35,574 bases of DNA from Anaerolineae bacterium (GTDB lineage: Bacteria > Chloroflexota > Anaerolineae > Aggregatilineales > UBA3940): the NCBI GenBank assembly GCA_016927375.1, contig JAFGMS010000139.1, forward strand, positions 1-35,574. Direction: 5' to 3'. Position 1 is the first letter of the stretch. Each line of letters begins with the position of its first letter. Under the pieces are notes generated by a model. The model searched no databases, had not been told where the DNA came from, and saw only the letters and a list, made by a program, of their open reading frames with translations. The position numbers and the translations under genes are program-made. Of this stretch, positions 2,595 through 35,574 are shown one piece after another.

Positions 2595-2818
2595 AGTGGG
2601 TAGGTTGGGTCGAGGATGCGACCGGTCTCATGATGCCGTCGCCGCCCTTGCCATTTATCCGCATCTTACCAATCGACTGTCTTACCGCTGGTGATCGCTT
2701 GTTGATCCGCAACTCTCGCCGGGGGGTAGGGTTATCCTCCGCCGAGCAATCGCCCGGTAGCTTCAATAGAGGATAGCAATGCCATTGTCCTGCTGATCAA
2801 GATGCAAATCTGCAGTGC

Positions 2819-9765: not shown

Positions 9766-11199
9766 ATGCGAATTGCCATTATTGGGGCAGGGGCAGCCGG
9801 GCTGGCAGCCGCCTACGATCTGGCAAAGGCCGGGCACAGCGTCACTGTTTTTGAGAGCGGGCCGGAGGTTGGCGGTTTGGCGGCCGGTTTCAAGGATATA
9901 CGGTGGGACTGGACGCTAGAGAAGTTCTACCATCACTGGTTTGCCACCGACCACGATATCTTGCAGCTGCTTAGCGAGATCGGCTGCGCTGACAGGGTGC
10001 GCTTTTATTCACCCACCACGAGTTACTGGCACGAAAGTGGCAATTTCGCGCTCGATAAACCGGTTCTGCCCAGTGGCTTACTGTCTCGCATTGTCAACGT
10101 GCTACGTATTCCCAGCATGTCATTGATCGACCGGCTGCGGATGGGGCTGGTTAGTGGTGTGGTGGCATTCATCCCTAATGGCCTCTTTCTGGAAAAGTAC
10201 ACAGCTAATGACTGGGCATACCGCTGGATGGGCAGGGCTGCCCATGAGCGCTTCTGGAAGCCGATGCTGATCGGCAAGTTCGGCCCCCTCTACGATCAGG
10301 TCAATATGGCCTGGTTCTGGGCACGGATGAACAAACGCACGGCAAAGCTGGGGACCTATGTCGGCGGGTTTCAAGAAGCACTCAATGATATTGCAGCAGC
10401 GGCCTGGAAGCTGGGTGTGACCATCAACCTGAATGCCTACATCGGGCAGATTACTTCTGTTGAAGGAAGCGAGCTCAGGGTAGCCACTAAGAAGGTCGGC
10501 GGTTACTTTGACCAGGTGCTCAGCACCACAAGTCCGGCTGCAATGCTTAAGCTGACCCCCGATCTGCCCGATCCGTATGCCTCTAAGTTGCGTAACTTGC
10601 ACAGCATCGGCGCACAATGCCTGATCCTGGCACTCGACCGGCAGCTGATGACCGATGGTACCTACTGGCTCAATCTGCCCGCCGCCGGCCCGGATAAAGA
10701 TGAGAACACCTTCCCCTTCCTGGCGCTGGTGGAGCACACCAATTACTTATCGAAGGAATATTATGGAGGGGATCACCTGGTCTATCTGGGGGATTACCTG
10801 TCTCCTGAACATGCCTATTTTCGCATGAGCGAGGAGGAACTGGCTGCTCGCTACTTGCCTGCGCTCAAACGAGTCAATCCGGGTTTCTCTCCGGAGTGGA
10901 TACGCAAACGCTGGCTGTTCCGATCTCCATATGCGCAGCCGGTGCCGTTTGTCAATCATTCACAACATCTACCGGACATCCGTACTCCGATGGAGGGATT
11001 GTACTTCGCTTCTATGAGCCAGGTGTACCCGTGGGACAGGGGGACGAATTATGCTGTTGAGATGGGGCGTCGTGCAGCGCGTATGATGCTCGAAGATGCC
11101 GCAAAAACAGCCGAGCCGCATGAGGTAAAACAAAACCCGGGGCGGTCGATCTGTCGCCCCGGGAGAGCGGGTAAGGAGATTCGAACTCCTGACATTTAG
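9766..11199 (+). CDS. NAD(P)/FAD-dependent oxidoreductase (amine oxidase/protoporphyrinogen-oxidase-like)
   Basis: MRIAIIGAGAAGL Rossmann motif, VGGLA, EKFYHH, YPWDRGTNY; start set at ATG 9766 with AAGGA RBS. Confidence 0.9.
   Translation: MRIAIIGAGAAGLAAAYDLAKAGHSVTVFESGPEVGGLAAGFKDIRWDWTLEKFYHHWFATDHDILQLLSEIGCADRVRFYSPTTSYWHESGNFALDKPVLPSGLLSRIVNVLRIPSMSLIDRLRMGLVSGVVAFIPNGLFLEKYTANDWAYRWMGRAAHERFWKPMLIGKFGPLYDQVNMAWFWARMNKRTAKLGTYVGGFQEALNDIAAAAWKLGVTINLNAYIGQITSVEGSELRVATKKVGGYFDQVLSTTSPAAMLKLTPDLPDPYASKLRNLHSIGAQCLILALDRQLMTDGTYWLNLPAAGPDKDENTFPFLALVEHTNYLSKEYYGGDHLVYLGDYLSPEHAYFRMSEEELAARYLPALKRVNPGFSPEWIRKRWLFRSPYAQPVPFVNHSQHLPDIRTPMEGLYFASMSQVYPWDRGTNYAVEMGRRAARMMLEDAAKTAEPHEVKQNPGRSICRPGRAGKEIRTPDI
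11127..11163 (-). terminator. Intrinsic terminator downstream of tRNA-Gly
   Basis: CCCGGGGCG/CGCCCCGGG stem (11136-11163) followed on the minus strand by TTTTGTTTT. Confidence 0.8.
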
Positions 11200-11237
11200 C
11201 TTGGGAAGCTAACGTTCTACCACTGAACTATACCCGC
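11166..11237 (-). tRNA. tRNA-Gly (CCC)
   Basis: GCGGGTA acceptor stem, AGTGGTA D-loop, TTAGC-TTCCCAA-GCTAA anticodon arm, GTTCGAATC T-loop, U discriminator; CCA not encoded. Confidence 0.96.
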
Positions 11238-13421: not shown

Positions 13422-13478
13422 GGTAAGCTGTCAGCTCTTAGCTTTTAGCTGTTAGTCTTTAAGCTGTGAACGGTAAAC
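13422..13478. repeat. Degenerate 7-bp tandem array (8 units)
   Basis: GGTAAGC TGTCAGC TCTTAGC TTTTAGC TGTTAGT CTTTAAGC TGTGAAC GGTAAAC. Confidence 0.8.
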
Positions 13479-15176: not shown

Positions 15177-15236
15177 AGACCTTCGACTTTCTGTAAGCTT
15201 CCGGCATCAGCCCGCAGCCAACAACCGGAGGAGCCA

Positions 15237-15698
15237 TCACTCAGTGCCCATTACATTGCTGCTTGCTTCAAATGCCTGTTGCACGCGTGGACGCGTCAAA
15301 CCGAATATCACCAGGGCGCTTAACAGCACTGCTGCGCCGATGACGAAAGGGAGCCGGGCACGTTCGTATTCGCCCTGTGCAAACAGGCCTTGCTGCCCAA
15401 TGAACATGATCTGGTACATGATGAAACATACAATGGCTGCCCGGCGCGACCAGGATAATAATCGCCATAACCCCCAGGCGACTCCCAGCCAGATGATACC
15501 CCATATGCCGCCGGATGTCAGGAGCAGCCAGAACGGCAGAGCCAGGTTCAGCTCGGTAAAGATGTGCCGGCGCGCCAGGCCAACAGCGAGGCCGGTAAAG
15601 CCGGCAACCGATAAGATAAACACCGCGACTGCCAGCAAGGTTACGAAAAGAGGGCGTTTGGGCTTAGCATTCATCAGACCAGGATATCCATTCGTCAT
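15237..15698 (-). CDS. Hypothetical 4-TM membrane protein
   Basis: 153-aa ORF, KRP followed by four hydrophobic helices, co-oriented with the carboxylase genes. Confidence 0.75.
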   Translation of the reverse strand: MTNGYPGLMNAKPKRPLFVTLLAVAVFILSVAGFTGLAVGLARRHIFTELNLALPFWLLLTSGGIWGIIWLGVAWGLWRLLSWSRRAAIVCFIMYQIMFIGQQGLFAQGEYERARLPFVIGAAVLLSALVIFGLTRPRVQQAFEASSNVMGTE

Positions 15699-15787
15699 AA
15701 GAGACGCTTCGGTTGAGCCAGCTTAACACGGGGATGCTCTCAATTACTCGCAGGTTTCCTTCTTTAGCCATGGATTGATAGCCCTGT

Positions 15788-15838
15788 CTGGACACAGAAC
15801 GTCCACCTGGGCATTCCTACGCAGAGCGTAGGAACGAG
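15788..15838. repeat. REP-like palindrome
   Basis: GCATTCCTACGCAGAGCGTAGGAACGAG hairpin preceded by TGGAC-ACAGAAC-GTCCA; resembles from recall the GCATTCCCACGCAGAGCGTGGGAACGAG REP class. Confidence 0.65.
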
Positions 15839-15842
15839 GAAA

Positions 15843-16115
15843 GACATCGCGATGTTCTTTTAAGACGCCGCGATGTTTCTTTAGGACATCACCATGTTCC
15901 TCTATAACATCACGATGTTTCTTCATAACATGGCAATGTTTCTTCATAACATGGCAATGTTTCTTCATAACATGGCAATGTTTCTTCATAACATGGCAAT
16001 GTTTCTTTAAGACATCACCATGTTCCTCTATAACATGGCAATGTTTCTCCATAACATCGTGATGTTTCTTTGAGACACCGCCATGTTCCTTCAGGAGGCC
16101 ACGATGTTTCTCTGG
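15843..16115. repeat. 13 x 21-bp tandem array with palindromic core RACAT-N4-ATGTT
   Basis: Units start every 21 bp from 15843 to 16095; central units AACATGGCAATGTTTCTTCAT; edge units degenerate. Confidence 0.95.
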
Positions 16116-16225
16116 GGCGCCGGTTCAGTCGAGGATTGTGACCGGTCTCCTGATGCCATCACCGCCCTCGTTCCTTGACCCAACATGCCTTTTTATCCCA
16201 ACCAGCCGCTCAGTGCGCCTATCAG

Positions 16226-16425
16226 CCCCGCCCGGCAATAGAATTGGCCGGGCTATAGTTGTGATGTCCACTGAAAGTGGACTTTTTGGCAGGTGGTAGG
16301 GTTTCCTGTCCACATAAGGAGAAGGCCTGGGCCTCTGTAAGGAAGTTCGCCCCCTTACACAGGAGGTCGAGTCCACTTCAGTGGACATTACATTTGTAGC
16401 TGGGGAATTCTATTCCTCAGCGGGG
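16226..16425. repeat. REPIN-like inverted pair of ~57-bp hairpin units
   Basis: 16226-16283 and 16370-16425 are inverted copies sharing AGTCCACT(T)TCAGTGGACAT and an AATTCTATT-centred hairpin, 86 bp apart. Confidence 0.75.
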
Positions 16426-16451
16426 GCGCATAGCCCGGCCAAGCCGCTCTT

Positions 16452-16533
16452 GCATAGTCACGCACCTTTATCGTCAGGCGACACGGAAGCATTATCATGC
16501 ACCGCAATGGCGTTGTCATGCGTCGCGATAGCT
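16452..16533. repeat. Short degenerate 21-bp-period array with GCAT-N4-ATGC core
   Basis: Cores at 16468, 16489 (GCATTATCATGC) and 16510 (GCGTTGTCATGC) are 21 bp apart; an extra core GCATAGTCACGC at 16452. Confidence 0.6.
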
Positions 16534-18598
16534 ATGTTTGCTTGGGCACACAGTACTTGTCAAACCAATCGAGCATCTGCTGCAGGCGGCTGGCGCGGTG
16601 GGCGGGCTCGCCGCTGCGTGACAGCTCGTGGCCGTCACGCGGGTAGCGCAGGAACTCGACCGTCCCGCCGCTGCGGCGAACCATGGCAAATAGCTGCTCC
16701 GACTGCTCGATGGGAACCCGGAAATCGTTCTCGCTCGCCAGGATCACCAGCGGTGTCTTGATGTGGTGGGCATAAGCTGCCGGAGAGTACTTCCACAACA
16801 ACTCCGGCTCTTCCCATGGCTCCACATCGAACTCGTCACTGATCAGGGTGGGGATATCGGATGTACCGTAGAAGCTGGTCAGGTTGTAGACGCCGCGCTG
16901 GGCAAAGGCGCAGGCAAAGCGATCGGTGTGGCCGGCTACCCAGGCGGTCATGAACCCGCCATAGGAACCACCGGTGACGGCCATCCGGTCCGGGTCGACG
17001 AAGCCTTTAGACAACAAGGCATCGATGCCCGCCATCAGGTCGGGGAAATCGGCTTCACCCCAGCCGCGGTACAGGGCGCGCCGGAAAGCCTCACCGTAGC
17101 CTTCACCGCCGCGCGGATTGCAGTAGAAGACCACGTACCCTCGCGCTGCATGGAGCTGCCACTCGTGCCACATGGTGCGGGAGCCGGGTCCCCACATGAC
17201 GTGTGGTCCGCCGTGGATGTTGAAGGCCAGAGGATATGACTGACCTTCTTCGTAGCCGGGCGGCAGGATGTACCAGCCTTGTATCTCGGTCCCGTCGTGG
17301 GATTGGAAACGCATCTCCTGCGTGGGCTGGACGATGACCTCGTCGAGCAAGGCTGTGTTAGCCTCGGTGAGCTGCTGCGGGCTATCGGCATCGACGGGCT
17401 GCCAGAACAGCTCCGACGGGTTCTCCGGCGTGCCGGCGCTGAAGGCGATCCCGCCCCCGGCCGATATATCGACATCTTCAACCTGCATGCAGCCGGGAAT
17501 GACCTTCTCGACCACGCCGGTGGCGACATCGGCCTGATAAACCTCGGTATTTCCCTGGTCCCCGGCTAAAAAGATGATCGCCCGGCTGTCAGCCGTCCAG
17601 CGGAAGCCCGACCAGGGCCGGTTGGCGGTCATGGCCAGCGAGCGATCCAGCGCCAGGGTCAAGTCGCGGGGGGCGCCTCCATCAGAAGGGATCAACGCCA
17701 GCCGCGTTATGTGCGTGTACATGTTCTGATGGGGGATGCGATTGTAGGCAATCCACCGGCCATCCGGTGAGGGAAGAGGATTGCCGCCGGCATACTCATC
17801 ATCGGTCAGACGCTCCTCAGCGCCGTCGGCTAAACGTATCCGGTACAGACACCTGGAGCGCGACGGCTCGTCGCTTTCCGGCTCCGAAGCCCGCGCCGTG
17901 AGGATGTATTGGCCGTCCGGCGTCCACCGGGGCTCATCGTGGTGGGCATCGATGCCCGTCAGGCGGCGCGGCCTGGCCTCTTCCTTGCTCAGCCCGGCGG
18001 CAGCGGGCATCACATAAATCTGGTCAAAACGGTCATCGAGGAAAGAGGTGCCCTGGCGGTAGGGAATGCGCCATACCGGGCGCGGGTCCCAGCGCTCGGC
18101 CTCTTCATGCTCCTTGCGCTCGACCTGCTGTGTAGCCTCGAATTTGTCTGCCGGAGGCGGATCTTCCTCACCCCGATCTTCTCCGGCGCGCTCTTCGGCG
18201 TTCACCTTCGATAGAAAGGCTATCTGTGTCCCGTCGGGCGACCAGGCAGCGCGGCCGGCGCCGTTGGGCATGGCAGTCAGCGCGCGGGCCTCGCCACCCG
18301 GCCCATCGATGGGCAGCAGGTAGATTTGAGGCTTCTCGCCCCGGCCCGAGGTAAAAGCCAGCACTCTGCCGTCCGGTGACCAGCGCGGCTGCGAATCCTT
18401 GCCGCTGTAAGTAAGCCGGACGGGTTTCTCCCCATCTGTTGGAGCCAACCACAGGTTGCGCTGATAGGCGTCCTCGATCTTATCGATGGTCACCTGGACA
18501 TAGGCGATATAGCGACCGTCCGGGCTGATGGATGGGTCTTCGATAGCAACGAGCTTGTAGAGATCGTCGATGGTTATGGGACGTTTGTCGTTGGACAA
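16532..18598 (-). CDS. S9 family peptidase (acylaminoacyl/dipeptidyl peptidase, beta-propeller + alpha/beta hydrolase)
   Basis: WSPDG repeats, IHGGP, GGSYGG nucleophile, DFRVP, DGHEL; TTG start with GGAGG RBS. Confidence 0.95.
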   Translation of the reverse strand: MSNDKRPITIDDLYKLVAIEDPSISPDGRYIAYVQVTIDKIEDAYQRNLWLAPTDGEKPVRLTYSGKDSQPRWSPDGRVLAFTSGRGEKPQIYLLPIDGPGGEARALTAMPNGAGRAAWSPDGTQIAFLSKVNAEERAGEDRGEEDPPPADKFEATQQVERKEHEEAERWDPRPVWRIPYRQGTSFLDDRFDQIYVMPAAAGLSKEEARPRRLTGIDAHHDEPRWTPDGQYILTARASEPESDEPSRSRCLYRIRLADGAEERLTDDEYAGGNPLPSPDGRWIAYNRIPHQNMYTHITRLALIPSDGGAPRDLTLALDRSLAMTANRPWSGFRWTADSRAIIFLAGDQGNTEVYQADVATGVVEKVIPGCMQVEDVDISAGGGIAFSAGTPENPSELFWQPVDADSPQQLTEANTALLDEVIVQPTQEMRFQSHDGTEIQGWYILPPGYEEGQSYPLAFNIHGGPHVMWGPGSRTMWHEWQLHAARGYVVFYCNPRGGEGYGEAFRRALYRGWGEADFPDLMAGIDALLSKGFVDPDRMAVTGGSYGGFMTAWVAGHTDRFACAFAQRGVYNLTSFYGTSDIPTLISDEFDVEPWEEPELLWKYSPAAYAHHIKTPLVILASENDFRVPIEQSEQLFAMVRRSGGTVEFLRYPRDGHELSRSGEPAHRASRLQQMLDWFDKYCVPKQT

Positions 18599-18609
18599 GG
18601 CAACCTCCG

Positions 18610-18644
18610 GATTGACGATTGACGATTGATGATTGACGATTAAA
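18610..18644. repeat. 7-bp tandem array (GATTGAC x5, degenerate)
   Basis: GATTGAC GATTGAC GATTGAT GATTGAC GATTAAA abutting the peptidase RBS. Confidence 0.85.
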
Positions 18645-19455: not shown

Positions 19456-19518
19456 ATGTGGCATATGGCTGATGGCTTATGGCATATGGCTGATGTTGGT
19501 GAACGGTAAGCTGTGTAC
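19456..19518. repeat. Degenerate 7-bp tandem array (9 units)
   Basis: ATGTGGC ATATGGC TGATGGC TTATGGC ATATGGC TGATGTT GGTGAAC GGTAAGC TGTGTAC. Confidence 0.8.
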
Positions 19519-21879: not shown

Positions 21880-22052
21880 GTAACTACTCAGTCTTAGCTG
21901 TTGGCTCTTAGCTTTTAGCTTTTAGCTTTTCAAGCTTCGATCTGTGCTTGTAAACTCAGGCTGGATACTCGTCACGTCTCACGTTTTACATATTTACCTT
22001 TTGTGCATCGCTTATGGCCACAGTAGAGAGCACCAGATAGCTGAGTAGTTAC
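21880..22052. mobile_element. 173-bp MITE with perfect 12-bp TIRs and 8-bp target-site duplication
   Basis: GTAACTACTCAG (21880-21891)...CTGAGTAGTTAC (22041-22052), flanked by direct repeat CATCTGCC (21872-21879, 22053-22060). Confidence 0.92.
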
Positions 22053-35339: not shown

Positions 35340-35434
35340 TGATTTTGATATGGGTGTGTTTCATTTGAGTTGAGCATAAGCTCCCCGGGCCCAGAGCAAT
35401 TGGTATCTGTTCCCGTCAAGAATGTACCCTGCCC

Positions 35435-35574
35435 GATTTCCTACAAAGGACTTCTCGGTTTCCAGTAAGGAATGAGCTGGTTTCCTATAAGGATTGGATC
35501 GGCTTCCTATGAGGATTTACTCCAGATCCTATGGGATTTGTGCCGTTTCCTATCAGGATTCGAAGCGTTTCCTA
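35435..35574. repeat. 22-bp-period tandem array with palindromic core TCC-N5-GGA and variable linkers (runs off window end)
   Basis: TCC cores at 35439, 35461, 35483, 35505, 35527, 35548, 35570 (spacing 22,22,22,22,21,22). Confidence 0.85.

Follow-up and report, generated by a model that had tools for sequence, protein, structure and literature searches.

A 13-unit, 21-bp tandem array in an Anaerolineae genome belongs to a dispersed repeat class linked to genes for small helical proteins

Results

The locus and its neighbours

The window analyzed here, meaning the whole stretch of 35,574 nucleotides (contig JAFGMS010000139.1 of the Anaerolineae assembly GCA_016927375.1), contains a 21-bp tandem array in an 830-bp spacer between a gene for an S9 peptidase and a gene for a 153-aa protein. 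Both genes lie on the minus strand (Table 1).

Table 1. Features of the window around the array and elsewhere
Position	Strand	Feature
11166-11237	-	tRNA gene
13433-13467, 18610-18641, 19459-19495, 21894-21930		Intergenic heptamer arrays
15237-15698	-	Left neighbour; 153-aa protein without Pfam match, kept in six relatives that have no array upstream
15744-16052	-	102-aa heptad-repeat open frame through the array
15788-15842		Dispersed hairpin repeat adjoining the array, separate from it; 11 places in the genome, one directly downstream of a helical gene on contig C513
15843-16115	+	Tandem array, 13 x 21 bp; RACAT-N4-ATGTT core plus 7-nt linker
16116-16168	+	Short segment right of the array; single 85% copy at window 2603-2648, outside the array family
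16226-16442		Nested inverted-repeat elements; arms 16252-16275/16377-16400, 16226-16245/16406-16425 and 16244-16256/16430-16442
16452-16535		Array of four degenerate units with period 21, different in sequence type from the 13-unit array; at the peptidase gene's 3' end
16532-18598	-	Right neighbour; S9 (prolyl oligopeptidase family) peptidase by Pfam, transcription directed at the array
35380-35574		End of an element of about 300 bp that has conserved flanks and is internally repeated with a 22-bp unit; occurs at about 41 places in the genome

The spacer holds further repeats. We take the hairpin repeat that adjoins the array to be REP-like. The nested inverted-repeat elements, parts of which match 15 places in the genome, are separate insertions into the array's spacer. 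In three genomes of the same family, two genes, presumably dehydrogenase- and oxidoreductase-like, lie between the peptidase gene and the 153-aa gene; here the repeat-filled spacer (15698-16532) is found instead.

At the orthologous site, all six relatives (one of the same genus, five of the same family) carry another ORF abutting the start of the 153-aa gene, and no array. Since the left gene is retained in these relatives without the array, we rejected the array as an operator for the neighbouring genes, and it has probably not arisen as a control element for them. A promoter scan near the array gave results at chance level.

Structure of the array

As the original prediction had stated, the period is exactly 21 bp: 13 units follow each other without gaps, and the identity at lag 21 is 0.77, compared to 0.37 or less for the best lag in 1000 shuffles. 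ATGTT was indeed found in 13/13 units (unit positions 10-14), but RACAT, which had been ascribed to every unit, forms the unit start in only 10 of the 13. The earlier list of N4 centres had left out CGCC. We also recovered the unit reported to recur 126 bp apart (at 15885 and 16011) and the expansion of GGCA units, as five of the 13 units are GGCA-centred and three of these are identical and adjacent. As to the description of the cores as palindromic, a self-palindromic centre (CGCG) occurs in just 2/13 units. One mini-hairpin per unit is not supported: in the predicted RNA fold, pairing is mostly between adjacent units. For both strands of the array, the predicted folding exceeds that of shuffles by far (z about −7).

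The array has no spacers, and its units vary within a small allele set. A Pfam scan of the 30 ORFs in the window revealed neither a cas nor a rep gene, in agreement with the earlier claim that none is adjacent, and a search of Rfam gave no match over the array. With no unique spacers, no cas family among the 30 ORFs and no Rfam match, the array does not fit the description of a CRISPR array. Two RNA runs from the same study gave no match to the stretch, a result that is uninformative about expression. Contigs from one public run, possibly the source of this DNA, match positions 15200-15944 and 15978-16304 with zero differences. They break inside the run of identical units, so that the copy number of these units stands without independent confirmation.

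An architecture shared with two other stretches, 16452-16533 and 35435-35574, had been proposed. These belong to different families, and a common architecture beyond the period is not supported. The array at 16452-16535 has a lag-21 identity of 0.51 and no common core, and 35435-35574 has a period of 22 (identity 0.58 versus 0.40 at lag 21) and conserved flanks. One array of this latter element family lies directly downstream of a HU-HIG gene on contig C335.

Coding potential

Judged by its sequence, the array is intergenic and non-coding, and the heptad frame running through it is most likely not a gene. The frame is stop-free in the window array and in the copies on C269 and C471, which would suit a coding role, but few single changes would make a stop in it. 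A codon-phase test on the variable positions gave p=0.096 for the window array, and p<0.05 was reached in just 1/48 arrays. Consistent enrichment of synonymous change was absent in every frame across the arrays tested; in the minus-strand heptad frame, the synonymous share was 10/38 compared to 0.19 expected. Arrays of the families identified here are inside long ORFs in 8/146 cases, versus 73% of random positions. Copies of the window family also lack common flanks. The frame has an atlas score below 0.8 and was not found in the protein collection, neither of which is proof against gene status. A translated and conserved heptad protein would have refuted the original prediction; we did not see one, as the frame matches no Pfam family at the cut-off and the codon-phase result is as given above. 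A real small protein encoded on the minus strand is thus very improbable.

The array class in this genome and beyond

A catalogue of arrays with a period of about 21-22 bp in this genome yielded 168, which fall into 16 multi-member clusters (10 of period 21) and 22 singletons. Together with the low number in long ORFs, this bears out the proposed genome-wide family of intergenic phased arrays. Among tandem-repeat (TRF) rows with at least four copies and a period of 10-40, periods 21 and 22 account for 88. The family of the window array has copies on five further contigs (C269, C471, C285, C281 and C250), of which those on C281 and C250 may be one locus, since they have common sequence at the contig ends. 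The copies in the window and on C269, C471 and C285 have unrelated flanking sequences, and conserved ends or terminal inverted repeats are absent.

The window array type was not found in the genome of the same genus. A three-unit pattern, on the other hand, had matches at 37 GTDB loci, spread over Cyanobacteria, Bacteroidota, Planctomycetota and other phyla; a stricter two-unit pattern matched 0 metagenome loci. Palindromy had been put forward as a defining feature, but whole-unit dyad symmetry exceeded that of shuffles in just 6/23 gene-linked arrays. It is therefore a trait of the window family and not of the class, and the feature common to the class is the period.

In five relatives that have neither a helical nor a HU-HIG gene, we found 2 marginal arrays in 800 kb compared to 23 expected. 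This scarcity is confounded, as the array-rich genomes G000 and G001 belong to one genus and heptamer repeats show a similar contrast: TRF rows of period 7 or 14 number 440 in this genome and 3 in 800 kb of five relatives.

Several arrays were observed in other arrangements. On G000 contigs C41, C544, C322 and C235, a single tract joins arrays of two different 21-bp families. The arrays at L227, L229, L232 and L234 occupy homologous positions, where the unit has drifted and the period of 21 and the downstream flank are kept; three of the four were located upstream of duplicated genes encoding repeat proteins, in Tolypothrix-like genomes. The common flanks of the L002, L003, L006 and L011 arrays were considered as element ends, but proved to be mostly upstream regions of duplicated genes. 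A Bacteroidales ORF adjoining an array (L016:3481-4161) matches an ADP-ribosyltransferase Pfam family.

A helical protein gene downstream of period-21 arrays

When the genes neighbouring 119 arrays of this genome and the 37 GTDB loci were clustered, as the original prediction had advised, a small protein recurred across phyla. The prediction that a protein partner is missing at this locus was also borne out, since no helical gene lies beside the array and gene-linked arrays exist elsewhere. The missing partner is probably this protein family of about 115 aa, which has 1953 representatives at 50% identity (E≤0.001) and a conserved C-terminal motif, G-x-x-S-x-x-Y-E-x-x-G-G-x-R-x-S-E-R-K. We found no name for it: there was no Pfam match at the cut-off and no common NCBIfam among 135 members, and the atlas clusters are unnamed.

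The linkage is one-sided. In five cyanobacteria, sampled because they carry the window array type, a period-21 array lies within 900 bp upstream in 22/30 gene loci and downstream in 0/30 (30 of 57 hits were fetched, one had been found array-first, and three of the eight negatives have less than 240 bp upstream). In two other cyanobacteria, sampled on the same ground, 14/17 hits have an upstream array, and the three negatives include two partial hits. A sample of 400 genomes of the phylum gave an upstream array at 7/9 full-length hits, one of the seven with period 22, after eight weak hits inside long ORFs had been dropped. These gene-first searches counted arrays of period 21 or a multiple of it. 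All three helical gene copies in this genome and the single one in G001 are preceded by an array. The gap between array and gene varies from about 110 to 620 bp.

Each helical gene has its own unit sequence, and gene-less copies of the three types found here occur on 16, 2 and 1 further contigs, with about 11 such copies in G001. Arrays of the window type precede the helical gene at L033 and L071 (two Nostoc genomes) and at L024 (an acidobacterium), and these three are also the closest to the window array among 28 gene-linked arrays. In genome G202, the gene-less L005 array matches the gene-linked L071 array at 74%. The claims on L024, L203 and L205 are based on an unpublished genome (G610). 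Across the 28 loci, array and protein similarity are weakly correlated (rho 0.17, with kin not independent). At L104, L092 and L106, an inverted repeat of about 13 bp, identified by eye, brackets the helical gene, with one arm just past a promoter-like site and the other beyond the stop, which could allow the transcript ends to pair.

The plus strand of the window array corresponds to the strand that codes for the gene at the gene-linked Nostoc array (7-mer overlap with L033: 0.27 sense, 0.04 antisense). The partner gene would therefore be expected to the right of the array, where there is none. No helical gene was found beside the six window-family arrays, or elsewhere with a matching array, in this assembly, which is 87% complete and has three of the family copies at contig ends. 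Near the pattern-matched GTDB loci, the gene was found at just 2/37. Nine non-cyanobacterial genomes with the window array type gave no convincing match to the helical family, and the gene-less arrays in G616-G619 had no gene-linked match from the same genome among the fetched loci.

Predicted structure of the helical protein

The model of the helical protein (pLDDT 95.5) has a 54-residue helix, preceded by a short one and followed by a short terminal one. Dimer prediction gave a score of 0.70, a mark reached by 20/30 proteins solved as pairs and 1/23 solved as single chains; the best of three controls scored 0.00. The dimer runs showed at least 97% contact agreement and a pLDDT of at least 87. 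The predicted contacts (48-66, 52-62 and 41-73) give an antiparallel register with the rod centre near residue 57, and the N-terminus of one chain packs by residues 70-99 of the other. The mean net charge is −3.6 for the rod, and +2.0, +2.4 and +4.8 for the segments that meet at the ends. The prediction is thus of a rod-shaped homodimer whose chains run antiparallel, acidic in the middle and basic at the ends. By ideal-helix arithmetic on the contact list (1.5 Å per residue), the ends of the dimer would be roughly 70-90 Å apart, compared to 71 Å for 21 bp.

A Foldseek search of PDB and viral structures gave no match at E≤0.001. The best structural match from VIA-align (Z 5.6, rmsd 6.0, 90 aligned residues) was level with unrelated helical chains, and a sequence search of solved structures returned generic helical hits only.

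Other protein families beside period-21 arrays

In the nine non-cyanobacterial genomes, three arrays have as neighbours helical proteins that carry Ig-like tails. Proteins with a helical N-terminus and an Ig/fibronectin-like C-terminus were seen beside 21-bp arrays at L021:3356-4048, L034:3487-4428 and L017:256-888. The L021 family has upstream period-21 arrays at 12/21 metagenome loci, where three of the positives are near-identical and three of the negatives lack upstream DNA. We detected no homology between this family and the helical partner family, and did not find it in this genome. HU-HIG (PF18291), which has a DNA-binding fold, has a 21/22-bp array within 1 kb at 5/6 hits in this genome. 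Array pairing therefore spans several protein families.

Discussion

The array matches a published class of repeats. Subirana and Messeguer (PMC8161180) described constant-size, non-coding bacterial tandem repeats of 20-21 nt, gave their function as unknown and the constancy of their size under changing sequence as unexplained, noted that the size equals two helical turns and proposed a protein polymerizing on DNA. Like these repeats, the array at 15843-16115 has at least four copies of a 20-21-nt unit, a fixed period, a variable non-coding sequence and a short motif in all units, and the genome holds several families that agree in period and differ in sequence. By the features described in the consulted part of PMC8161180, it is a member of this class. 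The published families are described as species-specific; ours was not found in the genome of the same genus, yet a similar core occurs at 37 GTDB loci in several phyla. The main difference is that the accessible text of PMC8161180 names no partner gene. Here, a gene family is linked one-sidedly, and each copy has its own array family with additional gene-less copies. No report of such a link was found in the literature searched (main texts, mostly non-subscription), and the linkage to the helical family is apparently unpublished.

By analogy, the array may work like plasmid centromere arrays. In ParR-parC, omega-heptad and iteron systems, a small gene follows a helically phased array of direct repeats that belongs to it. 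Unlike these, the array described here is chromosomal, has housekeeping neighbours, and has no partition ATPase, par gene or Rep among the recurring neighbours. Many copies are gene-less, and the putative partner is a long predicted helical rod.

Comparison with dispersed elements gave partial likenesses. BrickBuilt, a minisatellite-MITE of Porphyromonas gingivalis (PMC4596501), is described as a dispersed intergenic array of 23-nt tandem repeats, with 19 copies per genome. It shares with our array a unit of about two helical turns, but has a conserved leader, tail and inverted ends; the window family lacks common flanks, and the 22-bp element of the window fits this description better. REP/BIME and REPINs with RAYT (PMC3733652, PMC3116915) resemble it in having one gene-linked copy and many dispersed, intergenic, short palindromic repeats. 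Compared with what these sources describe, the array is head-to-tail, with a fixed period, no spacers, no GTAG/CGTC tag and weak hairpins, and its partner has no transposase family match. CRISPR, TIGR and VIPR likewise place a periodic intergenic array beside a dedicated protein, but the periods given in a 2026 survey of periodic intergenic clusters (bioRxiv 10.64898/2026.10.21.760802) are 60-79, 18 and 5 nt, with variable guides, which our array lacks. Section 2.3 of that survey lists no period-21 class. The small dispersed repeats (SDR) of cyanobacteria could overlap with the 21-bp class.

The existence of the array class, the dispersal of its members and their one-sided linkage to a gene family are observations; what the arrays do can be explained in several ways. 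Gene and array could be a selfish module that spreads together. The protein would then copy or spread the repeat, for instance by bridging arrays so as to promote exchange, and gene-less arrays would be non-autonomous by-products without a function for the host. DNA binding would fit such a module too, the difference from docking being one of purpose. The distribution is indeed patchy, with convincing hits in 4/400 other genomes of the phylum versus 8-17 per heterocyst-forming cyanobacterium, and truncated gene copies exist. The array is missing at the orthologous site in 6/6 relatives, a search of the genome of the same genus did not find its type, and other repeats accumulate in its spacer. 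We nevertheless consider such a module unlikely, given that no transposase, nuclease or reverse transcriptase family is among the recurring neighbours, that the gene-less 21-bp arrays have no common flanks or ends, and that the phage collection gave no match and the plasmids a single record.

Slippage in a repeat-tolerant lineage could also have produced a neutral minisatellite, with the gene link inherited and no mechanism behind it. The enrichment of heptamer and other repeats in the same lineage fits this, as does the drift of the unit at a constant period upstream of duplicated cyanobacterial genes, which concerted evolution alone would produce. It is improbable in view of the unrelated units that have period 21 in common upstream, and only upstream, of a single gene family across three phyla, and of a second protein family paired likewise at 12/21 loci, with the same reservations about near-identical positives and missing upstream DNA. 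A role as RNA, in which the array is transcribed and the partner binds 21-nt units or long inter-unit hairpins, strikes us as quite improbable. Although both strands fold beyond shuffles, the basic protein ends would suit RNA equally, and satellites of Bacillus coagulans were reported to be transcribed (PMC8625621), folding is a trivial outcome of repeated dyad cores, and dyad symmetry is missing from most gene-linked arrays. Moreover, no Rfam match and no variable spacer were found, and at three loci a TTGACA-N17-GATAAT-like or partial promoter, recognized by eye, lies between array and gene, which places the array outside the gene transcript.

We favour, with a probability of about 0.5, the reading that the array represents the 21-bp class as a gene-less, non-coding copy specific to its lineage, and is likely a double-stranded DNA docking track for the predicted dimer of the coiled-coil protein. 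Of the workings originally suggested, a phased protein-binding array is the likeliest, with binding by the putative partner. The predicted dimers would be arranged along the array with about one dimer to each unit, because their end span of 70-90 Å is near the 71 Å of 21 bp, and this spacing would hold the period while the sequence drifts. A few units may seed a new intergenic site, followed by local expansion through slippage or unequal exchange. The cognate gene of the window array would then be unassembled or lost. Several results count against docking: the missing cognate gene in this assembly, the rarity of the gene near the pattern-matched loci (2/37), the negative searches in the nine non-cyanobacterial genomes, where other proteins flank some arrays, the weak correlation of array and protein similarity, the variable gap between array and gene, and the poor fit of a symmetric dimer with the 17/23 arrays that have no significant dyad symmetry.

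More tentatively, the antiparallel coiled-coil dimer of about 115-aa chains could be a two-turn ruler that reads, and maybe propagates, its own 21-bp array family, so that each paralog (up to 17 helical paralogs occur per cyanobacterial genome) owns dispersed docking tracks. The window array is itself gene-less and matters mainly as an entry point to the class. With a candidate family of some 2000 representatives, linkage on one side, a predicted dimer whose span is about right, and many copies in cyanobacteria that can be cultured, the polymerizing protein suggested in PMC8161180 becomes directly testable. If true, a two-turn-ruler system would explain the constant 21-nt size of these satellites and would provide orthogonal protein-DNA pairs.
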